Shown: positions 2,242 to 13,005 of the stretch, piece after piece
Numbering within the stretch: the first letter of the stretch is position 1
Layout: the number at the start of each line of letters is the position of its first letter
Assembly (NCBI GenBank): GCA_965205505.1
Contig: CBDBHB010000007.1
Coordinates: 320,001 to 384,000 of the forward strand
DNA length: 64,000 nt
Direction: 5' to 3'
Source of the DNA: Acidobacteriota bacterium
GTDB taxonomy: Bacteria > Acidobacteriota > UBA890 > WLXD01
Notes under the pieces: model-generated
What the model was told of the DNA's origin: nothing
Seen by the model: the letters and a program-made list of their open reading frames with translations, nothing else
The model's database searches: none
Made by a program: the position numbers and the translations under genes

Positions 2242-2526
2242 GGCTCCGATACTATCAACGAGACCGAGCCGGCGGCGACGACCGCCGGGGTCGTCATGGA
2301 ATGTGACTTACCCATGGAAGCTCTCGCCGATTGTTGCCAGCAAGAAGCTTCGCGTAGCCTCGCGAAGCGCCGCCGGGTCGCCCGCTGCGACGGATGCAAC
2401 AGGCTCGTGCTGTCCTACGGCGACCGCGCCGACTACGAGCGCACCATCGCGGAGCTGACCGACAACGGCGTGGAGTTTGAGGTCGGGTCGAGCGGCAAGC
2501 TCCTCATCATTGCCTACCAGCGTTGA
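2227..2526 (+). CDS. Small hypothetical protein with CC and CxxC motifs (possible metal binding); start may be downstream
   Basis: LADCCQQE...RCDGCNRLVLSYGD; fills the gap between 2241 and 2655. Confidence 0.5.
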   Translation: MAGTHGSDTINETEPAATTAGVVMECDLPMEALADCCQQEASRSLAKRRRVARCDGCNRLVLSYGDRADYERTIAELTDNGVEFEVGSSGKLLIIAYQR

Positions 2527-2654
2527 CGCGATACGCCCGTCATGGGTAGGCGTCGTACCGCCTGGTGCTCGGTGCTCCTGACCGCCCGGCTTGTGGGCGT
2601 CCTGCTGCTCGGTCATCTGGACGGCAGCACGCCAGCGCAATCTGGCGCCATCAA

Positions 2655-5600
2655 TCAGGCCGAACGCGCCTTGCGAAGGTGCTCTCGAATCGCCTCGACA
2701 AACCGTGGCACGGTATCCCAGACATCACCGACAATCGGATGCACGAGGGGTGTCTTGCGCTGCTCGTTGAGCTTCATCAGCGGTGCATCAGGGTCAACGT
2801 TGAACGACAAGATTACCGCTCGGTCGCCGATGTAGTCGACGTGCTGCGGCGCGCCGGATACCGCCAGGGCAATGATCAGCTTCGGGTTCACCGATACACC
2901 GGTTTGCCCGATCTGGCGATCGGCCGGAAGCAACTCGAGGTCCTGTGTGACCTTTCGCGTCGCCCCGATCATCACGTTGCGCAGGCCCATCTCATCAACG
3001 AGCAGCTGCCGCAGCGGCTCGGCGAGCTCATCGATGCCCGCTCGACCGCCGGCGCCGTAGCCGAAGTCGATGATGATCTCGGCGTCCTGCAGGGTGTCCT
3101 GGTCGCCCGCCAGACTCGCCAGGAATCGGGCCAGCGGATCGTGGCCGGCGTCGTACTCCAAATCGGGCGACCATTTGTAGACTTGGGGTTCCTGCTCCCG
3201 TTCGGAGGCTCTGCGTCCGCCAGTAAGATCGAGCTCCACCGTTGTCCCCAAAGTGAGGACACGGAGGCCGCTCTCGAGCGGCAGCTCGGCCTCCGCACGA
3301 GCTGCGCCTCCATAGATTCGCGTGGCGACGCGGGCGTGTCCGCCGCCATTCGAGATCGACTCGACGTTGTGCCAGCTCCAGCAACGACCGGCCTCGGTGT
3401 TCGCAACGCCGCCGGCCACGAAGCGGGCGAACAGCTCATTTGCCCAGGTTGCCGCAAGCAACCATCGGAGCTCACCGCGGTACTTGGCCCAGAACTCTTC
3501 GAACCACTCGAGATGGCCATGGGCGCTGAAGCCAGCCGCTCCGGCCATCGCTACGATGTACGCCCGACGCGGTCGCACGGCGGCCAGCACGGAGCCTGCC
3601 ACGACCTCCGCGGAAACCTGATCGGTATCGACGGGCACGACCACATCGAGCAACATGCCAACGCCGTCGGCAAGATCGCGAGCAAGACGGAGGTCGGAGT
3701 TGGCGCTTGCGGGGAGCTCGTCGCCGACCGGCGCCAAGACGAACAAACAGCTCCCCGCCTCGTCGTCGCTGGGCTGCTCACGCAGCGACAGCATCCGACC
3801 TTCGTAGGCACTGGCAGGGTCGGTCGCCGCAGCTCCGACCCCGGCTACATCGAGCAGCACACCAACCGCATCCTCCGGCGAGTCGACGCGTAAATCGCGT
3901 CCGTTGCTGGCCGCCACCGCTCGTGCACGATGACGAACACGTACGGTGGCTCGATCCCCCACCAGGTCCGCGGCCGACAGACGCTCGATCTCGGCGGTCG
4001 CAGCGTTCAACCAGGCGCTGAGATCATAGTCGGCTGCTTCGCCGAGACGCGGGAGGGTTGCGACCACACATGGGATCTGAACCGATAGCTCGCGGCCTTC
4101 CCATGAGGCAGCGGCTATCTTCAGCCTCGTGGCGGCACCATCGCCCCAGCGCAGGCTCTCTACTCCGCCATAGACCTTGCTGCCCAGCGCCACGGCCAGG
4201 TAGCTGGACACCACCCCTTGGCCGGTATCTGCGGCGCTCGCGCCGCAGACCACCACGTCGGCAGGTCGACGATTCAATGCGGCGGCGACCACACGTGCCA
4301 CGTAGTCCCCGTCGTGTCGCACCGAGCCAACGCCGTTGGAGGCAGATGAATCGAGATGTACGGCATGATCGGCGCCAAGTGCGAGTGCCGCACGGACGAC
4401 ACTGGCGCCATCGACCCCCGCCAACGTGTAGACGCTGACCTTTATGCGTTGAGGATCGCGTTTCTTGAGCGCGAGTGCCGCCAGTAGCGCGGTCTCATCT
4501 GCCGGATTAGTGAGGCGGAGCGGCTCGGCGAACTCACCATCGGCGAGCCGTGGTCGCGGCGCCGTCGCCGGCACCGGCTTGAGCAAGACCGCGATCTCGA
4601 TCTCGCGGGCGAGATCGGGCTGTTGTCGCTGCTCGATCAGATCGTCGGGCACGAGGCCCCAGCCCTCGGTCGGAGCTCCAGTCTCCTCCAAAGACAAGAA
4701 TCCCAGCTGCGTCTCCGGCGAGTACCGCCCCTCCACGAGATACTCGAGGGCGATCGCGCAGCGTCGCTCTAGCGCCTCGATGCGGGCCAAAGCGCGCTGT
4801 ACGAACAGCCGCGAGGCGCGCTCGAGGCGCGCCCGGTATTCGGCTGGGACTTGGCGCCGTGCGTTCCACTCGAGTCGGTAGAGCACTGCGTCTATCACCT
4901 TGGTCATCCCGGCGACCTCGGCCAAGCGGAAGAAGCACGGTTGCAGCCCGACGTTCGCCCAGACCAGCTGGCCGAAGCTCGCCACCGCACCCTCGAGGTG
5001 GTGGAGCAAACGCTGTCTGGCTCCACCGAGCGCCGCAACCAGCTCCGGATAGGCGAGCTCGTGGCCCTCGGGATCCCCGGCACCACGTTGCCACTCCGGC
5101 AGCACGCGCTGGACGAGGTCCTTCAGCAGCAGAAAGCGCTGCACCTCGTTGGTGCCCTCGTAGATGTTCAGCACCCGGGCGTCGCGCCGCGTCTTCTCGA
5201 CGCGGTGCAGCCAGGTCTGGCCCTCGAGCCCGCGCGCCCGCTCCATCCAGTCGATGCAGTCGTGCTCCGACTCGGTGCCGTAGTACTTGCCGATCGCCGA
5301 CTCCATGCGCACCGAGTCAGTGCACTTGTTGTCGAGCAGCCCGATCATCTCGTAGGTGACCGACGCCGTCCCGACGAGCTCTTCGGCAACACGCCCCATC
5401 CAATATCGCTCCAGCGGCCTCGCCGGGGCGCGCGGCGCATACTCGAAGCCGGGGGCAACGTCACCGCGCAGATAGGGAATCGCATCGGCGGCGAGCTCCG
5501 CGATCGTCGAATGGGTCGTCACCGCCAACCCCGCACGCCCGGTGTTCAAGGTTTCGAGCGCGTTGACCTGACCACGACCGCGGAAGCCGATAATCGCCTC

Positions 5601-8600
5601 GTGCGGCACACGGACGTTGTTGAGCGACAGCTCGTTGGTGGGCGAGCCACGCTGCCCCAGCTTCTCCTCATCGGCTCCCACGACGAGCCCTTCGGCGTGC
5701 CGGTCGACCATGAACCCGGTAACGCCCTCCGGCTCGGTGCGTGCGTACAGCGCCATGCAATGACAGAAGCGCCCGTTGGTAATCCACATCTTGGCGCCGT
5801 TGAGCACCCAGTACTCGTAGAAAGAGTTGCCGGCGGCGTCGGTTCGCAGCAGGCCGATGTCGATGAACTGAACCTTGCGACCACCGTGCATGTAGAAGCG
5901 CGTTCGCTCCGGCGCATCCTGGTCGTAGTCATACTCGGAATGATCGATGAGCGCCGGCTCGGCATCGTCTGCGAAGCGATAGAGCAACCGGCGTTCGTCG
6001 TAGTCGTGTTCCACCCGATCGGCGTCGAGCAAATAGCGTCGCTCGAGCTCGTTGTCCTGGTCGAGCCAGAACCACAGCACTCCGTCGTCGTCGCGGTGCA
6101 CGCGTCGCCGCGCGGCGCGCGCCATGGTTTTCACGCCTCCGGAATCGGACCCGGCAGTAGGCTCAGTAAGCGCGAACGCCGAGATGTAGCCGGCAGAGAT
6201 CGTCTTCAGGAAGAGCTCGTGCGCGCGCTGCCGACGCGGGTACTCCGCGAGGCGCTCCTCGACGGCACCGAGGACGTCATCGATGAGCTCGCGCGCCTGG
6301 CGCAGCTGCGCGCCGAAGCTCTCGAGATCGCGCTGCTGGCCGGCCCGTGTCGCCGCCTGGAACGCCCGCAAGAAACCGCCACCGAGGTACTTCAACACCA
6401 TCGACTCGGCGACGCGCTTCTTGACCAGCGAGCCGATCTCGGCGGTTGCCGCGGCAAGCGCATCGGTGTTCGGCCGTCTCAGCATCGCCAGCACGCGGTC
6501 GATGCCGTCACGGATGTCGCCGAGCACCTCGGGATGCTGGCGCACGCGCTCGAGCTCGGCGCGGGCGCGCGGCAAATCCTGGTACAGGCCGATGAGCGCC
6601 GGCGTCGTACCGATGCTCGTGTTGCCCATGATCGCCAGCGACAACGCCGCATCGCCGTACCGGCCGATGAGCATCGAGAGGATGTAGTACTCGGCCTTCA
6701 GGGCTCCCTCACCGCCGAGCTGTTGGGCAATCGGCATGCGCATGAAGCCCCGCCTGACCATGTAGTCGAGGTCCTCGTCGGGAATCATGTGGAGCTTCTC
6801 AAGATAACGTCCGTACGGCAGCCCATCGAATCTCGGCGCCTCGAAACGCTCACGGAGCTCGGTCTCTAGCTGCCTCCGATAACGCGCCAGCCCCGGGTCG
6901 TGGGCCAGTATCTCGGGCACGCAGCGACGCGACCCAGGGTCGAAGCCGTTGCGAAGCCACTCACCAGATTCATGCGGCTGATCGGCGGTGTAGACGCTCT
7001 CGTAGGGCTCGGAGTCCGGAATCGACGCCGCTGCGAAGTCGCCATTCTCGAGCAACTCGTCGCCGGCGATGAGCGTCGCCGGCGCGAGACCGGCCGCGTC
7101 GATCAATGCCGGAATCTCGGCATTGAGCCGATCGACAACCAACCGCGTCGCCTCGACCATCGCCTCGGTCGGTATGCCGGCGTCAATCCGCCGCATCGAC
7201 CGTACCAGCAAGCTCTTGGCGGCGAGCACCTCGATCACGATGTTGCCGGCAGCGTATGCGGTCAGATCATCGTCGGCACTGCCAAGGCCGCCCGCCCATT
7301 CCTCGGTCTGCTGACATGCAGCCTGGTAGCGTCGTGCCGCCTCGCCAAGCAAGGCATGCTCCGCGGCGCGTGCCGCCCATCGTTGCTCGTCGTCACCGCA
7401 CGGGATCAGGTCGCAGCCCGATCGGGCGGCGGCAAGCCGGCGCCGCCCGACCTGCACGCACAACGCATCGTCGTGGCCGAGCAAAAATCGAAACGGCGCA
7501 CTGTCGCGGTAGTACTTGGCGATGTCGTCATCTTCCGAAAAGGCGGTGCCCCCGAAGATCTGACCGGTGTTGTAGCTGAACGAGCGATCGCCCGGGCCGA
7601 AGGCCTGGCTGGCCAGCACCTTGCTGACCGCCTGCCCGGTCCATTGATCGCCGCCGCCCGGATTGGCGAGCGCCATCGACTCGAGCACGTAGCGGTGCAC
7701 CTCCATCTCAGCCAGCATCTGCTTGACAGCGCCGAACTTGGCCACCGTGTCTCGGCCGGCCTCGTCCTCGAACGTTCCCGGGAACTGCACGCGCCCGGCG
7801 GCGTGCTCGCGGGCACGCTGCAGCAGGTACCTTCCAGATCCGCGAACCGTCGCGAGGTAGCCGGGGAGCGCCACGCCGAGCACCGCCGCCCAAGGCTCTC
7901 CGGCCGCCGGCGCCTCGAGCACTACCTCGTCGACTACTCCCGAAAGGTCGACGCGCCGCGCCGCAGGCACCGTGATGCAGTCGCCGCGCAGGCGCCGGAT
8001 CCGCGCGCCGATCAGACCCACGCTGCCGACGTCCTCGATCACCAGTCGCGGGTCATCGGCATCGATGAGGAAGCCGTCGCTGCCGACGACCACGAGATAG
8101 CGTTGCGCCAGCGCGGTGGGAACGAAGTCGGCGCACACGTCGATCTCGACACCCCCGCCTTGCAGGCGGCGCGCGGCGCGCTGACCACCATGGATGGTCG
8201 CGGCAACCACGCGTGCCGCCTCCAGCTCGGTTTGCGGAGCACCGGCCAGCGCCAACAGGTCGACCGCGAGCAGATGCGACGACGCCATCAGCGCCAGCGC
8301 CGGGTCGGTTGCCGCGAGCTCTTCGAGCACTACGTCCCGAAGCCCGTAGCCGTCCGTTTGCGGCGCCGCGGCGGCAATCTGGTTCCGCAGCCAATCCTCC
8401 TGCTTGTCCGACATCGGTTCGCCGCGCTCCAGAGCACGCACTGCATGGTTGTCGAACCAGCGCTCGCAGCCCTCGCGCACCTCTCCGCGCCAGGCCTCGA
8501 AGTCACGCGGCTCCGCCTCCCGGCGCCGCCACTCGACCGCCTCGAGCTGCTGCTCGACGCACAGGTCGTCGCTCACGCCGACATCGGTCTCAGGCGGCGC

Positions 8601-11339
8601 GGCAGCGGCGTTGCAGACTGCCAAGATGGCGATGAAATGATGGTCCTCGAGCTGCCGGGCGAGCACATCGGCCCAGAAGAACCTGTGTGCCTGGGCATGC
8701 TGTTGCATCTGCTCGAGACGCTCCGCCGCGTCGTCCCAGACGGGTGTGAGCAACTTTGTTGCGGCATTGCTGCCCGAGTCGCTCGTCACCGCTTCCCAGG
8801 TCTGGCGGGCATCGACAAAGGCATCGCGAGCAGCCACAAGGAGGGCGCGGAGATGGCCGCGACGCCCCTCTTCCAAGGCCAGCGGAGAACGCGCCAGATC
8901 GGCACGATAGCCACGCAGGGCGGCGCGCGTGCGCTCCAGCCGAGCGCGCGTGGCTGCGTGGGATGGGCCCGGCAGCGCGCTCGCATCGGCATCGCGAATG
9001 GTATCCAGTAGCTCCGGCAGGAATCCCGGTCGTGAACCCAGACGCGGTTGTGGCTCGGGCCGGTCGGCGAGGTAGGCGTGGAGCTCTTGCTGCGCGGGTG
9101 TATAGGTCTGATAGATGAGCCGCTGCTGGGTGGCGCGGCTCCAGTGCACATCGCCCGTGGCGCGCCAACAAGTCTCGCATTTGATGCAGTTTTCGTAGTT
9201 GACCACCACCCCCGGCTGGCCCGCCGGGTTGCGCCGCACCTCGTAGACCTTGGCCGGACAGATGTTCCACAGCGCCGACGACGACAGGTTGTTCCGGTCG
9301 GCGAGCGGCGTCGGCCACATCACCTTGATGTGGGAGTGGTGGCCGGCCTGATACGTGATCGTGCCCAGCTTCGCCTCGTAGGTCGTGGTGATGGCAACGT
9401 GATCGTCATCGAGGCGGATGCGCTCGTGGTTGTCGGCCAGCAACCGGTTGGTGAGCCGCTGGCCGAAGCGGCTCGGCTCCCAACGCAATACCGAGCGCTG
9501 GAACCACTCGGCGGCCGCCTGCGTCAAGCTGGTTGCGATGACGGCAGCACCGCCGCCCGCGACCACGGCGACATCCCAGATCGACAAGCAACCGGCGAGA
9601 TGCCGTGCCGCGGCCCGGAGCTTGTCGGCCACGTCGGTATCGTCGTTGGTGTAGACCTCGCTGAAAGCGCTCGCCAGCGCGCCGCCGAAACGTCGCCAGT
9701 ACCAACGGAACAGCCACGGAGTCGTGCCGGACTGCTCCCCACCCGCCATCACGCGATACAGAGCCCGCAGCCGCGCTCCGTCGTGCGCCCGTGCCTCCGC
9801 CACGCCGGCCCCGGCTGCCGCTGCGACTGCAGGGTCGGAGCTCTCGGCCAGGCCAACGTGCGTACCCGATCGGCGCGGCAGGAAAGCCCCGACGGTGTTC
9901 CATAGCACCCGCAGCAGGTTGGCGGGCGTGGCCGCAGCGCGAACGAGCATGCCCAAGCCGACTGCGTGGGCCAGGGCGCGGCTGTCGGCCACGATCGAGC
10001 CGTTGCCATCCCTGACGACGCGACGCACGAGCCGCACCACGCTCCAGTAGCGCTTCCAGGAACCCAGCTCCGGACGCGACATGATGTAGGCGCTGTTGTT
10101 CAACAAATCGAGCTGCTTCTCGAAGAAGAACTGCGTGCGCTCGATGTAAGCCGGCCAGTCGTGCAGGTGCTGCACGCTGCGGTAGTAGTGACTCGACTTC
10201 ACCGCCTTGAGGTACGTGTGGCGCAATGCCCGCTCGGTAAACGGCGATTGCGTCGGATCGCCACTACGTCCGAGGCCACCAGAATCGGCGGCGATCTGAC
10301 GCACCGCAGCGGCAAAGTGCAGCCCCATCGCCGTCGCCGGCCCGGTAAAGTTCGGATAGGGAAAGTCGAGGCCGATACCGCTCGCGGCGCCGCCAATGGC
10401 CAGCCCCTCGTCGACCAGCCGCGGAATTTCCTTCAGGCCGCCGCCGCGGATGATCTTGGCGCCGTACGAGGTGAGCTCGCCGCCGTCGATCATGCGGGCG
10501 ATCTCCGGTAGGCCTTTGAACCACTCCATGAGGATGTTGTGGTCGCCTTCGAAGTGCTGCCGGAGGTTGTCGAGCGGTAGAACGAACCCGAGCGACAAGC
10601 TGTCGCGGTTGGTGTAGACGAAGCCGCCCATGTTGAGCCGCGCCGTGCGCCCCTTGCGCGAGGCGTTGCGGAGCAGCATCTCGAAGGCCACGCCTTCGCC
10701 CGGCGCCAAGCCAAAGCGCTCCTCGAGCACGTCCTCCGGGAGCGAGATCACCTCTTTCACGCCCTGCAGGAAGTGCGGTGCTCCCTCGGCTCGATCACGC
10801 TCCGAAACCTGCTCGTAGCCTTCCTGGGTGACCAAATGCGACGCGTCGCCCTCCGCGAGAAACACCACATCGGCATACGCCGGACCGCGCTCGGTGTGAA
10901 CACCGATGACGCGACCTCGATGCCGGATGAGGCTCTGAACAGTAGTCTCGCAGGCGAGCATGACGCCGTGCTGGCGCGCTACCTCGGCCAGATACCGATC
11001 GTAGACGGGCCGCAGCACCGTGTAACAAGAGCGGAAAACGTCGGGTGACAGAAGGCTGGCGCCGAGTAGGCTATGGCCGTTGTACAGGTAGGCGCCGCGC
11101 TCCACGAGTCGGCGCTCGTACGGCGCCGCCGCGACGATGTCGCGGCCGAAGGCATCCGGATGTTCCAGGTTCTCCGAAAAGTAGACGGCACCCGACCAGT
11201 TCTCGGCACCGGGGAAGATCCCCGCTTCGCAGACCAGCACCGCGATTCCGGCCCTGCCGAGGGCCATCGCGGCGATGATACCCGCCGGGCCGGCCCCAAC
11301 GACGATCACATCGAAGCGGTCGGGGGCCAACGTAGTCAT
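2655..11339 (-). CDS. Giant multidomain flavoprotein: FixC-like FAD oxidoreductase + FixX-like ferredoxin + two acyl-CoA dehydrogenase domains + ETF beta + ETF alpha
   Basis: FixC: VGAGPAG, GVKEVISLPEDVLEERFGL, GGFVYTNRDSLSLG. FixX: CPAKVY...CIKCETC. ACAD-1: RVQFPG...QIFGG. ACAD-2: FALTEPTAGSD, LNGAKMWITNG, EEKLGQRGSPTNEL, RVLNIYEGTNEVQR. ETF-beta: LLKPVP...NPADETAL. ETF-alpha: GATRKV, QIGQTGVSVNPKLIIALAVSGAPQH. Confidence 0.9.
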   Translation of the reverse strand: MTTLAPDRFDVIVVGAGPAGIIAAMALGRAGIAVLVCEAGIFPGAENWSGAVYFSENLEHPDAFGRDIVAAAPYERRLVERGAYLYNGHSLLGASLLSPDVFRSCYTVLRPVYDRYLAEVARQHGVMLACETTVQSLIRHRGRVIGVHTERGPAYADVVFLAEGDASHLVTQEGYEQVSERDRAEGAPHFLQGVKEVISLPEDVLEERFGLAPGEGVAFEMLLRNASRKGRTARLNMGGFVYTNRDSLSLGFVLPLDNLRQHFEGDHNILMEWFKGLPEIARMIDGGELTSYGAKIIRGGGLKEIPRLVDEGLAIGGAASGIGLDFPYPNFTGPATAMGLHFAAAVRQIAADSGGLGRSGDPTQSPFTERALRHTYLKAVKSSHYYRSVQHLHDWPAYIERTQFFFEKQLDLLNNSAYIMSRPELGSWKRYWSVVRLVRRVVRDGNGSIVADSRALAHAVGLGMLVRAAATPANLLRVLWNTVGAFLPRRSGTHVGLAESSDPAVAAAAGAGVAEARAHDGARLRALYRVMAGGEQSGTTPWLFRWYWRRFGGALASAFSEVYTNDDTDVADKLRAAARHLAGCLSIWDVAVVAGGGAAVIATSLTQAAAEWFQRSVLRWEPSRFGQRLTNRLLADNHERIRLDDDHVAITTTYEAKLGTITYQAGHHSHIKVMWPTPLADRNNLSSSALWNICPAKVYEVRRNPAGQPGVVVNYENCIKCETCWRATGDVHWSRATQQRLIYQTYTPAQQELHAYLADRPEPQPRLGSRPGFLPELLDTIRDADASALPGPSHAATRARLERTRAALRGYRADLARSPLALEEGRRGHLRALLVAARDAFVDARQTWEAVTSDSGSNAATKLLTPVWDDAAERLEQMQQHAQAHRFFWADVLARQLEDHHFIAILAVCNAAAAPPETDVGVSDDLCVEQQLEAVEWRRREAEPRDFEAWRGEVREGCERWFDNHAVRALERGEPMSDKQEDWLRNQIAAAAPQTDGYGLRDVVLEELAATDPALALMASSHLLAVDLLALAGAPQTELEAARVVAATIHGGQRAARRLQGGGVEIDVCADFVPTALAQRYLVVVGSDGFLIDADDPRLVIEDVGSVGLIGARIRRLRGDCITVPAARRVDLSGVVDEVVLEAPAAGEPWAAVLGVALPGYLATVRGSGRYLLQRAREHAAGRVQFPGTFEDEAGRDTVAKFGAVKQMLAEMEVHRYVLESMALANPGGGDQWTGQAVSKVLASQAFGPGDRSFSYNTGQIFGGTAFSEDDDIAKYYRDSAPFRFLLGHDDALCVQVGRRRLAAARSGCDLIPCGDDEQRWAARAAEHALLGEAARRYQAACQQTEEWAGGLGSADDDLTAYAAGNIVIEVLAAKSLLVRSMRRIDAGIPTEAMVEATRLVVDRLNAEIPALIDAAGLAPATLIAGDELLENGDFAAASIPDSEPYESVYTADQPHESGEWLRNGFDPGSRRCVPEILAHDPGLARYRRQLETELRERFEAPRFDGLPYGRYLEKLHMIPDEDLDYMVRRGFMRMPIAQQLGGEGALKAEYYILSMLIGRYGDAALSLAIMGNTSIGTTPALIGLYQDLPRARAELERVRQHPEVLGDIRDGIDRVLAMLRRPNTDALAAATAEIGSLVKKRVAESMVLKYLGGGFLRAFQAATRAGQQRDLESFGAQLRQARELIDDVLGAVEERLAEYPRRQRAHELFLKTISAGYISAFALTEPTAGSDSGGVKTMARAARRRVHRDDDGVLWFWLDQDNELERRYLLDADRVEHDYDERRLLYRFADDAEPALIDHSEYDYDQDAPERTRFYMHGGRKVQFIDIGLLRTDAAGNSFYEYWVLNGAKMWITNGRFCHCMALYARTEPEGVTGFMVDRHAEGLVVGADEEKLGQRGSPTNELSLNNVRVPHEAIIGFRGRGQVNALETLNTGRAGLAVTTHSTIAELAADAIPYLRGDVAPGFEYAPRAPARPLERYWMGRVAEELVGTASVTYEMIGLLDNKCTDSVRMESAIGKYYGTESEHDCIDWMERARGLEGQTWLHRVEKTRRDARVLNIYEGTNEVQRFLLLKDLVQRVLPEWQRGAGDPEGHELAYPELVAALGGARQRLLHHLEGAVASFGQLVWANVGLQPCFFRLAEVAGMTKVIDAVLYRLEWNARRQVPAEYRARLERASRLFVQRALARIEALERRCAIALEYLVEGRYSPETQLGFLSLEETGAPTEGWGLVPDDLIEQRQQPDLAREIEIAVLLKPVPATAPRPRLADGEFAEPLRLTNPADETALLAALALKKRDPQRIKVSVYTLAGVDGASVVRAALALGADHAVHLDSSASNGVGSVRHDGDYVARVVAAALNRRPADVVVCGASAADTGQGVVSSYLAVALGSKVYGGVESLRWGDGAATRLKIAAASWEGRELSVQIPCVVATLPRLGEAADYDLSAWLNAATAEIERLSAADLVGDRATVRVRHRARAVAASNGRDLRVDSPEDAVGVLLDVAGVGAAATDPASAYEGRMLSLREQPSDDEAGSCLFVLAPVGDELPASANSDLRLARDLADGVGMLLDVVVPVDTDQVSAEVVAGSVLAAVRPRRAYIVAMAGAAGFSAHGHLEWFEEFWAKYRGELRWLLAATWANELFARFVAGGVANTEAGRCWSWHNVESISNGGGHARVATRIYGGAARAEAELPLESGLRVLTLGTTVELDLTGGRRASEREQEPQVYKWSPDLEYDAGHDPLARFLASLAGDQDTLQDAEIIIDFGYGAGGRAGIDELAEPLRQLLVDEMGLRNVMIGATRKVTQDLELLPADRQIGQTGVSVNPKLIIALAVSGAPQHVDYIGDRAVILSFNVDPDAPLMKLNEQRKTPLVHPIVGDVWDTVPRFVEAIREHLRKARSA

Positions 11340-11478: not shown

Positions 11479-13005
11479 ATGTACCGTCATCGTGTGATCG
11501 GCCGCGCACTCCTGCTGTTGATGGCGACCACGGTCGCCGACGCCACGACCGGCCAGTCGGAGCCGGGCCGACAGCTGCTCGTCGGTGCCACGATCGTCGA
11601 TGGCACAGGTAGCACCGCGTACCGCGGCGAGGTGTTGCTCGAGGGCGACCGTATTGCCGCCGTCGGCACAAACGGATCGCTGCGCCCATCGGACTCCGAG
11701 GCGACGCTGACGGTGATCGATCTCGCTGGCCTCATCCTGGCGCCAGGGTTCATCGACATCCACAACCACTCCACCCAAAGTTTGCGAGACGACCCGCTGG
11801 CGACGACGCAGATCGCGCAGGGGGTAACGACGATCGTGGTGGGCGCCGACGGCTCCTCCCCGTGGCCCATCGGCGAGTATCTCGACGACATCGACGCGCT
11901 TTCGACAACGCTGAATGTCGGCACGCTCGTGGGTCACGGCACCGTTCGACGCGACGTGCTGGGCGACGATTACCGACGTGTCGCCAGCACCACCGAAGTC
12001 AGGGAGATGGCGCTCCGGGTGCGGCAGGGGATGCTGGAGGGTGCCTTCGGCCTTTCGAGCGGCCTCGAATACGATCCTGGCTACTACTCGACCACCGAAG
12101 AGCTGATCGAGCTGGCGAGCGTCGCCGGTGGGCTCGGCGGTTTCTACATGTCGCACGTTCGCGACGAGGAGGACGGCCTTCTCGACGCGATCGACGAGGC
12201 CCTGCGCATCGGCGTCGAGGGCAAGCTGCCGGTACAAATCTCGCACATCAAGACCGGCAACGCCGCGGTGTGGGGCCAGGCGCGTGCGGTTCTGGGGCGG
12301 CTCGCAGCGGCTCGCGTCGCGGGGCTCGACGTGACCGCCGATCAGTACCCCTACACCGCCTGGCAGTCGGGACTCGGGATCGTCGTGCCCTCACGACGCT
12401 TCGACGATCCGGTCGCGGTGGCGGAGGGCCTCGCGGCCGTCGGCGGCGGTTCGCGTTTGCAGATCGTCGGCTACGACGCGGACCCCGCGGCTCACGGCAT
12501 GAGGCTGAGCGAGGTCGCCGCCCGCGCCGGCAAGAGCGAGGTCGAGATGTACATGGAAATGATGGCCAACGGCGGCTCGGGCATCATCGGCCACACCATG
12601 AGCCAGGAGGATGTCGACACCTTCATGACCTCGCCGCTGGTGATGACCGCCAGCGATGGCGGCGTTGGCAGCAGCCATCCGCGCGGCGCAGGTGCCTTTG
12701 CTCGTATTCTCGGCCACTACCTGCGCGAGCGCGAGATGCTATCGCTCGAGCGTGCGGTGCAACGGGCCACCAGGATGCCGGCGCAGCGCCTTGGCCTCGA
12801 CGATCGCGGCGTCATTCGACCAGGAGCCATGGCCGACCTGGTGGCATTCGACGCCGCCACCATCACGGACCACAGCACCTTTACCGATCCTCTCCGGTCA
12901 GCCACGGGCGTGCACGCAACCTGGGTGTCCGGGCAAAGGGTATGGGCCGAAGGACACCCGACCGGCGTACGCCCCGGACGAGGACTGCGGCACCCGGCTC
13001 AATAA
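11479..13005 (+). CDS. N-acyl-D-amino-acid deacylase (D-aminoacylase) family amidohydrolase, exported
   Basis: PGFIDIHNH, QGVTTIVVGADG, GLSSGLEYDPG, YMSHVRDE, QISHIK, HPRGAGAF; signal peptide. Confidence 0.85.
   Translation: MYRHRVIGRALLLLMATTVADATTGQSEPGRQLLVGATIVDGTGSTAYRGEVLLEGDRIAAVGTNGSLRPSDSEATLTVIDLAGLILAPGFIDIHNHSTQSLRDDPLATTQIAQGVTTIVVGADGSSPWPIGEYLDDIDALSTTLNVGTLVGHGTVRRDVLGDDYRRVASTTEVREMALRVRQGMLEGAFGLSSGLEYDPGYYSTTEELIELASVAGGLGGFYMSHVRDEEDGLLDAIDEALRIGVEGKLPVQISHIKTGNAAVWGQARAVLGRLAAARVAGLDVTADQYPYTAWQSGLGIVVPSRRFDDPVAVAEGLAAVGGGSRLQIVGYDADPAAHGMRLSEVAARAGKSEVEMYMEMMANGGSGIIGHTMSQEDVDTFMTSPLVMTASDGGVGSSHPRGAGAFARILGHYLREREMLSLERAVQRATRMPAQRLGLDDRGVIRPGAMADLVAFDAATITDHSTFTDPLRSATGVHATWVSGQRVWAEGHPTGVRPGRGLRHPAQ

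Follow-up and report, generated by a model that had tools for sequence, protein, structure and literature searches.

The 64,000-nucleotide stretch of DNA analysed here (hereafter the window; positions 320001-384000 of contig C7 of an Acidobacteriota genome, G000, that comprises 5.98 Mb in 9 contigs and is 96% complete) carries on its minus strand, at 2655..11339, a single stop-free open reading frame (ORF) with an ATG start, which encodes a protein of 2894 amino acids (aa). Along this chain, family models and folds recover six modules, in the order FixC-like flavoprotein, FixX/ETF-QO-like 4Fe-4S domain, two acyl-CoA dehydrogenase (ACAD) modules (ACAD-1 and ACAD-2), EtfB-like module and EtfA. 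The protein is probably a single-chain, non-bifurcating acyl-CoA:quinone oxidoreductase of roughly 310 kDa, possibly reversible, with menaquinone as its probable partner. ACADs, electron transfer flavoproteins (ETFs) and ETF-quinone oxidoreductases (ETF-QOs) are normally separate proteins, four to six of them for the parts united here. The gene family is real, conserved and uncharacterised, and what it encodes is probably a single-chain electron wire; its parts are known, while the architecture is apparently undescribed.

The 8.7-kb reading frame of the original prediction was confirmed without internal stops, as 2894 codons plus the stop codon, and it is uninterrupted in independent contigs and in relatives. 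Its start agrees with the N-terminal consensus of the relatives, MxxxxFDVIVVGAGPAG, and the G+C content along the gene is even (0.62-0.69). Modules were called with Pfam and NCBIfam on the protein, by scanning seven overlapping segments and by sequence searches of the Protein Data Bank (PDB); these recovered all six in the predicted order and at the predicted positions. A protein search over the length range 1591-5065 aa returned 208 proteins at E<=1e-3. The 120 listed include 117 with a length of 2400 aa or more (2409-3036 aa), to which the counts out of 117 given below refer. In their MAFFT alignment, occupancy is near 1 across all modules and most linkers.

A near-identical gene is present in 20 public sequencing runs from 10 studies. 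In Logan contigs of four runs from four different studies, all 30 bins of the gene are covered in each run, and single contigs cover 5775-11339 (runs X4, X6 and X7) and 2655-5305 or 2655-5802 (X4, X7 and X8) without gaps. These contigs show no frameshifting indel; the only one listed, in run X8, is a GCC inserted in frame behind 10030. An assembly or annotation artefact, in which adjacent separate genes had been joined by error, is so improbable that we exclude it, because relatives keep the fusion and the independent contigs are intact. Besides the long relatives and the contigs, conservation runs on through the linkers, and 11 of the 12 whole-length matches listed in other genomes of the order are open, at 2805-3053 aa without stops. 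Apart from a lone TAA within one of these copies (in genome G055), nothing was found that would favour such an artefact. The contigs of all four runs break at 5773-5804, about 30 nt that correspond to the WITNG motif of ACAD-2 and that are common to many other contigs; the break appears to reflect a branching of the assembly graph at a conserved motif and not a feature of the gene.

The amino-terminal module, a FixC/EtfC-like quinone reductase dependent on flavin adenine dinucleotide (FAD), comprises aa 1-407 (10119..11339). The NCBIfam models PRK10015 (1.4e-49) and FixC (6.4e-43) match aa 6-407, with scores of 169 and 147 bits that are far below their equivalog-type cut-offs of 466 and 610; the module is therefore a divergent member of the FixC/EtfC - ETF-QO family. 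The GxGxxG Rossmann motif (GAGPAG) is at aa 15-20, with G15, G17 and G20 invariant. In phmmer searches of the PDB, the FixC of Thermotoga maritima EtfABCX (7koe_C) matches aa 8-416 at 1.6e-32. An AlphaFold2 (AF2) model of aa 1-930, calculated from a 49-row alignment (pLDDT 87.2, pTM 0.89), has the same chain as its top Foldseek match (E 9.1e-25, TMt 0.87, rmsd 3.1), followed by ETF-QO (2gmh, 9.6e-17) over 792 columns that span both the FAD part and the Fe-S part. In fold, the FixC part is thus nearer to FixC than to ETF-QO. It is followed by a mostly helical insert without a Pfam family (aa 408-688; 9276..10118), in which a hydropathy scan finds the one pronounced hydrophobic stretch (aa 584-602) that lies outside the Rossmann and ACAD cores.

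The ferredoxin domain (aa 689-745; 9105..9275; PF05187, 3.9e-6) contains CPAKVY at 694 and CIKCETC at 718. In the segment scan, Fer4_ETF_QO matches aa 689-724 with a score of 27.4, above its cut-off of 24. The four cysteines of the 4Fe-4S motif, C694, C718, C721 and C724, are present in 117/117 relatives, and in phmmer alignment ICPAKVYEV...NCIKCETC pairs with FCPAGVYEF...NCVHCKTC of porcine ETF-QO (2gmh). No further conserved Cys column is found near the four ligands in the 117-row alignment, and since there is a single Cys4 motif, one 4Fe-4S cluster is expected. ETF-QO also carries one 4Fe-4S cluster, so the FixX-like domain resembles ETF-QO in cluster count; for T. maritima EtfX, the available text of PMC10734219 gives two. 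A helical linker without known family (aa 746-934; 8538..9104; Pfam scan and AF2 model) leads on to the dehydrogenase modules.

ACAD-2 (aa 1471-2090; 5070..6929) is catalytically competent by its motifs. Pfam places its N, M and C domains at aa 1511-1580, 1841-1909 and 1921-2072, and the motifs TEPTAGSD (1725-1732), WITNG (1852-1856) and IYEGT, the last with the putative catalytic base E2061, are all in place. E2061 and the A-G-S-D of TEPxAGSD are conserved in 117/117 relatives. Among PDB sequences, 71 ACADs match at E<=1e-5, led by CarC (6fah_C, 3.3e-32) and followed by a bacterial ACAD (5lnx), ACAD9, and then VLCAD and SCAD entries. Two inserts, at about 1590-1710 and 1740-1830, are specific to the family.

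ACAD-1 (aa 935-1310; 7410..8537) is a degenerate partner. Only its C-terminal domain is recognised by Pfam (Acyl-CoA_dh_1, aa ~1168-1300, 5.5e-8), and in the PDB it matches only VLCAD chains (1.3e-6); hhalign in local mode aligns the ACAD-1 and ACAD-2 profiles at E 5.9e-4 over 337 columns. By the VLCAD alignment and hhalign, the position of the catalytic Glu is occupied by L1287. This column contains L 56, G 29, I 12, V 5, F 4, W 4, A 3, Y 2, T 1 and P 1 among the 117 relatives, and an acidic residue in none. FVPTA takes the place of WITNG, the TEPxAGSD motif is absent, and the beta-domain has an occupancy of 0.5-0.7, as roughly a third to a half of the family members lack part of it. Both predicted acyl-CoA dehydrogenases stand as ACAD modules, but ACAD-1 cannot be catalytic, given that no relative has Glu or Asp at the base position and that the FAD-loop motifs are lost. 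To judge from these residues, ACAD-1 is a pseudo-enzyme with an ACAD-like fold and not an enzyme of the ACAD family. A reading of IFGGT (aa 1261-1265) as a degenerate YEGT was rejected, as the VLCAD alignment and hhalign assign these residues to the QIxGGxG motif.

Two motifs of ACAD-1 are nonetheless highly conserved. R1183, Q1185 and F1186 (R-x-Q-F) are invariant in the 49-row alignment, and G1259, Q1260, G1263 and G1264 (G-Q-[IV]-F-G-G-T) are present in 117/117 relatives. In ordinary ACADs such as MCAD and VLCAD, the RxQFG and QIxGGxG stretches are at the dimer interface, where they contact the FAD bound by the other subunit. Neither stretch survives in ACAD-2: ERARGLEGQTW replaces QIxGGxGY, and the region of aa ~1951-1980 is poorly conserved. 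Because ACAD-1 keeps the interface motifs that ACAD-2 has lost, we infer a complementary degeneration, in which ACAD-1 would be a silent second protomer completing ACAD-2. Complex prediction of aa 940-1310 with aa 1470-2090 gave a score of 0.75, against 0.00 for the best of three controls; the mark used for such predictions is reached by 58 of 80 solved complexes and by 2 of 110 mismatched pairs. At least 73% of the contacts agree between runs, the partner pLDDT is at least 83, and the predicted interface is on the C-terminal domains, between aa 1259-1291 and 2026-2069. The model supports a predicted pairing of ACAD-1 with the active ACAD-2. The region between the two modules (aa 1311-1470; 6930..7409) has no Pfam family and is poorly conserved (0.36), and between ACAD-2 and the ETF part come a helical extension and a linker (aa 2091-2244; 4608..5069), with helices at aa 2098-2226 in the AF2 model.

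The carboxy-terminal part is a complete ETF, EtfB followed by EtfA, since Foldseek matches both subunits. The AF2 model of aa 2091-2894 (pLDDT 89.2, pTM 0.78) superimposes on EtfA chains over 366-390 columns (4kpu_A, 3.8e-17; 7koe_B, 1.6e-14; human 2a1u_A) and on EtfB chains over 225-290 columns (1t9g_S, TMt 0.80; 7koe_A, 0.69). The EtfB-like module, ETF domain III, comprises aa 2245-2490 (3870..4607; PF01012, 1.3e-11, at aa 2278-2458), and its nucleotide-site motifs are degenerate. The EtfA domain I-like part (aa 2491-2725; 3165..3869) keeps its fold according to Foldseek, with a sequence that is unconstrained. EtfA domain II, the mobile FAD domain, occupies aa 2726-2894 (2658..3164; PF00766, 9.6e-16, at aa 2750-2834) and aligns to 5ol2_A, 7koe_B and 1efv_A; both Pfam matches are above cut-off. 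Its site for the electron-transferring FAD (ET-FAD), R2795, T/S2813, S2828, Q2832 and H2833, is intact in 116/117 relatives, the remaining row being gapped, and aligns with the Arg, Ser/Thr and His of solved EtfAs, residues that the available text of PMC10279923 names for the ET site. Mean column conservation is 0.70 in FixC, 0.73 in FixX, 0.64 in ACAD-2 and 0.66 in EtfA domain II; it is 0.45 in the EtfB-like module, 0.40 in EtfA domain I and 0.48 in ACAD-1.

The state of the base formed by the EtfB-like module and domain I bears on an alternative that had been offered beside the wire, a fused electron-bifurcating or confurcating complex. Such a complex would hold a second FAD in this base, be fed by NADH, and deliver electrons to a low-potential acceptor and, through ACAD-2 and/or FixCX, to quinone. 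For AfeETF, the available text of PMC10279923 describes Asp D93' of EtfB as conserved in 100% of 228 bifurcating (Bf) ETFs and R146 of EtfA domain I in 99%, the underlying alignment being in the supplement. In the fusion, the phmmer alignment to 4kpu_B places a Gly at this Asp, part of a GGADT stretch that is absent as a whole; the region is variable among the nine family members compared. Both Verrucomicrobia-type members shown (P0041 and P0060) lack the G(K/R)QAIDxD nucleotide loop. In domain I, no column is conserved at 90% or more in the 117-relative alignment, and no match to a solved EtfA was found in the PDB by sequence or with a 13-row profile. One 4Fe-4S motif stands against the two clusters of EtfX, canonical ETF chains fit the fold equally well, and the covalently attached ACAD is already an electron source. 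On the other side, the closest structural relative of the FixC part belongs to the bifurcating T. maritima EtfABCX, bifurcating ETFs (4kpu, 7qh2 and 7koe) are among the top fold matches of the ETF part, and the best basic column of domain I, which is not alignable to solved EtfA, is an Arg at 75% (R2652). A bifurcating complex is disfavoured by the replaced Asp, the loop lost in a subclade and the unconserved domain I, and we regard it as quite unlikely; from its sequence, the base looks like a scaffold that holds no bifurcating flavin.

Domain models, folds and conserved cofactor motifs support the wire from acyl-CoA to quinone in the original prediction. In the path that we infer, the FAD of ACAD-2 would oxidise acyl-CoA, E2061 acting as the catalytic base, while ACAD-1, the dead paralogue, would replace the second subunit of an ACAD dimer and complete the FAD site of ACAD-2 in trans. 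The EtfB-like module and EtfA domain I would serve as a structural base, on which domain II with its ET-FAD would swing between ACAD-2 and the FixX-like domain. Single electrons would then pass from domain II to the one [4Fe-4S] cluster and the FixC FAD, and would reach quinone at the membrane surface; each chain would be expected to hold three FADs and one [4Fe-4S]. Menaquinone is the probable acceptor because the genome contains the futalosine-pathway family PF02621 (206 bits, above cut-off) and nothing above cut-off for MenD or the Ubi hydroxylases.

In the window, no further etf or fix gene was found near the fusion gene, as had been predicted. In the 5.98-Mb genome, other ETF_alpha and Fer4_ETF_QO matches are confined to another contig, C9, which encodes two EtfB/EtfA pairs as well as a stand-alone FixC (434 aa) accompanied by FixX (103 aa), at about 2.862, 2.893 and 2.565 Mb (L006, L007 and L008). 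Because of these separate EtfAB pairs and FixCX, the fusion is an additional system and not the sole ETF route of the cell. Both C9 EtfB/EtfA pairs are canonical-looking, and neither EtfB has the GGADT stretch of bifurcating EtfBs. Flanks were compared at 11 loci from 10 genomes of one order, including both copies of G118, a genome of the same genus. Upstream, a divergent Amidohydro_3 amidohydrolase (11479..13005 in the window, plus strand) is found on the opposite strand at 11/11 loci, within 252 nt at 10 of them. Downstream, a 360-aa protein with a signal-peptide-like N-terminus (P0121; 1159..2241, minus strand) is encoded on the same strand at 11/11 loci. This synteny may be inherited by descent.

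Several observations weigh against reading the protein as an acyl-CoA:menaquinone oxidoreductase. The quinone-binding model PF21162 (ETFQO_UQ-bd) matches aa 236-297 weakly, with E 0.0017 and 19.3 bits against a cut-off of 27.7, and no transmembrane helix is evident by hydropathy scan. The pairing score of the ACAD modules may mirror their likeness to known ACAD dimers, since such dimers have been solved many times, and the trans-FAD role of the ACAD-1 motifs would hold by analogy with the MCAD and VLCAD structures. No RNA run is among the listed holders of the near-identical gene. The conserved amidohydrolase and secreted protein do not point to classical beta-oxidation, and the EtfAB and FixCX already present in the genome imply some special role for the fusion. 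Finally, the midpotential of menaquinone is about -74 mV and that of enoyl-/acyl-CoA couples about -10 mV, so that acyl-CoA oxidation with menaquinone is slightly uphill.

By the same midpotentials, electron flow from menaquinol to enoyl-CoA is downhill, and for this reason we keep as the main rival the same wire run in reverse, a menaquinol-dependent enoyl-CoA reductase acting as an electron sink, in which menaquinol would feed electrons to the FixC FAD, and these would reach ACAD-2 by way of the 4Fe-4S cluster and the ET-FAD. The genome apparently has menaquinone only, all modules are reversible in principle, the best PDB match of ACAD-2 is the reductase of the caffeyl-CoA reductase complex (CarC), and its second-best ACAD match in NCBIfam is acryloyl-CoA reductase. 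However, SCAD, VLCAD and ACAD9 dehydrogenases match ACAD-2 almost equally, nothing in the sequence fixes a direction, and other menaquinone organisms oxidise fatty acids via ETF to menaquinone, as stated in the available text of PMC13083937. We give the reverse direction a low, though appreciable, probability. It is unlikely that the wire is real and its substrate is something other than an ordinary fatty acyl-CoA, either another thioester or a product of a pathway of the neighbouring amidohydrolase. The constant neighbours, which flank both G118 paralogues, would fit such a role, as would the two family-specific inserts of ACAD-2 and the ordinary EtfAB pairs and FixCX available for general use. 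Against this, the synteny is known within one order only, ACAD-2 has standard ACAD motifs with CoA-dependent enzymes as best matches, and neither a CoA ligase nor a hydratase turned up among the conserved neighbours.

The preferred acyl-CoA:quinone oxidoreductase can also be extended into a speculative proposal, which we would put forward with low confidence. A whole respiratory input module, consisting of dehydrogenase, carrier and quinone reductase, would be contained in one chain with an intramolecular pair of active and dead ACADs, forming a stand-alone enoyl-CoA/acyl-CoA:menaquinone redox engine at the membrane surface of menaquinone-only bacteria. Tethering, or an unseen coupling site in the approximately 700 unassigned residues (aa 408-688, 746-934, 1311-1470 and the ACAD-2 inserts), might then handle the near-isopotential or uphill step from acyl-CoA to menaquinone differently from free ETF systems.

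Among known systems, T. maritima Fix/EtfABCX (7KOE) shares with the fusion a FixC-like FAD module, a ferredoxin-like Fe-S module, and EtfB and EtfA with a mobile FAD domain. EtfABCX consists of four separate subunits and has no ACAD; its EtfX carries two 4Fe-4S clusters, and NADH supplies its bifurcating FAD, whereas the fusion is one chain with one Cys4 motif, no conserved Bf-site markers and a built-in ACAD pair. The available text of PMC10734219 has EtfABCX delivering its electrons to menaquinone. The mitochondrial and bacterial chain of ACAD, ETF and ETF-QO (1T9G/2A1T, MCAD:ETF; 2GMH, ETF-QO) has the same three functions and the same electron order. The single CP...CxxCxxC 4Fe-4S motif of the fusion aligns with that of ETF-QO, and its ET-FAD site with that of human EtfA; like the base of canonical ETF, its own looks to be of the AMP type or structural. 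In that chain, however, three proteins diffuse freely and ETF serves many dehydrogenases, while the fusion tethers them 1:1:1. Bcd-EtfAB (5OL2) and CarCDE (6FAH) also contain an ACAD-family enzyme stably bound to EtfAB, and the best sequence matches include CarC and the 5OL2 ACAD for ACAD-2, and their Etf subunits for the ETF part; these complexes differ in being non-covalent and bifurcating, in acting as enoyl-CoA reductases and in having no quinone reductase.

The ACAD pair resembles dimeric ACADs of the VLCAD/ACAD9 type, in that ACAD-1 matches only VLCAD in the PDB, and ACAD-2, which has a helical extension behind it, matches ACAD9 and VLCAD. In mycobacterial heteromeric alpha2beta2 ACADs of the FadE26/27 type, an active protomer shares a single FAD site with an inactive one, as proposed for the fusion. 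Unlike in the dimeric and heteromeric ACADs, both protomers of the fusion are in one polypeptide, between quinone reductase and ETF. The monomeric ETF of Sulfolobus acidocaldarius (SaETF) likewise has EtfB and then EtfA in one chain, but according to the available text of PMC12042025 it is an ETF alone, and bifurcating. The same text, from 2025, presents this two-subunit EtfB-EtfA fusion as a new identification and treats ACAD, ETF/Qor and FixCX merely as gene neighbours. That no six-domain fusion had been described still holds for the literature searched, in which no ACAD-ETF-FixCX fusion turned up and which left most subscription journals and supplements out of reach.

ACAD, ETF and ETF-QO are the textbook case of electron transfer through transient protein encounters and a swinging flavin domain. 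A natural, covalent 1:1:1 version is a ready object for cryo-electron microscopy and kinetics, and could show domain II shuttling between donor and acceptor as well as ETF meeting its quinone reductase outside the bifurcating EtfABCX. It would also provide a pseudo-enzyme ACAD retained in one chain for structural or cofactor-completing reasons, and a template for engineered single-chain electron wires.

The protein is not unique: by a search for full-length homologs, it belongs to a family in public databases with at least 117 near-full-length relatives. By the names given by depositors (Acidobacteriota, Verrucomicrobiae/Verrucomicrobiia, Planctomycetes/Planctomycetota and Gemmataceae), these represent three phyla, Acidobacteriota, Verrucomicrobiota and Planctomycetota, which are abundant, mostly uncultured bacteria of soil and water. 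This spread gives the family a bearing on how acyl-CoA electrons flow into, or from, the menaquinone pool in such bacteria. Automated annotation labels the members 'acyl-CoA dehydrogenase family protein' or 'electron transfer flavoprotein-quinone oxidoreductase'. In a phylum sample of 301 genomes, where a stricter first look makes the tallies a floor, multi-kilobase matches at E = 0 were obtained in 11/11 genomes of the family of the window, G000 included, and in 12/15 genomes of a sister family in the same order; several other copies are cut by contig ends. In the remaining 275 genomes, the best match is to a single module (E >= 1.5e-48), either FixC-like, with ~32-39% identity over the first ~350-400 residues, or ACAD, with ~29-37% over aa ~1830-2090; the unpublished genomes G024, G049 and G152 are counted only among these 275.

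The family-unique region aa 740-1500 was compared by HMMER with 1.84 billion representative proteins, giving 107 matches at E<=1e-3, and it occupies the same place in the full-length matches. A search for shorter forms containing this region returned one protein, a 635-aa piece on a 2040-bp contig, and the short matches inspected mostly begin mid-domain and look like contig-end fragments. No clear case of a split operon of the same parts was found among the protein searches for shorter forms, and a locus search with the single protein returned only two close relatives and one unrelated ACAD.

Three proteins of 1139-1459 aa (P0192, P0198 and P0201) have a proper FixC N-terminus, extend into the ACAD-1 region and then stop early; they may reflect truncated gene calls, or else be real short forms that lack ACAD-2 and ETF. 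A shorter size class (P0039-P0083, ~2470-2590 aa, with Verrucomicrobia-type names) keeps all modules and lacks parts of the ACAD-1 beta-domain and several linkers; P0041 and P0060, in which the EtfB nucleotide loop is gone too, belong to this class.

Of the immediate neighbours, the 360-aa protein matches no Pfam or NCBIfam family, and a weak Atlas lead points to DUF3108/DUF6134 (0.91, 145-155 shared features). A class-V aminotransferase is also encoded downstream in the window. The 110-aa ORF at 2308-2640 (minus strand) has no family and no conserved counterpart among flank ORFs of at least 110 aa, and is probably spurious. The G055 copy of the fusion gene (L021, G055:C5:128817-137579) has one in-frame TAA, which may be a sequencing error or mark a pseudogene. 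G118 has two full-length copies, G118:C14:524191-532920 and G118:C15:996457-1005159, with 55% and 90% identity, respectively, to the protein of the window. By identity, the former clusters with the sister-family copies, pointing to an old duplication or to transfer within the order.

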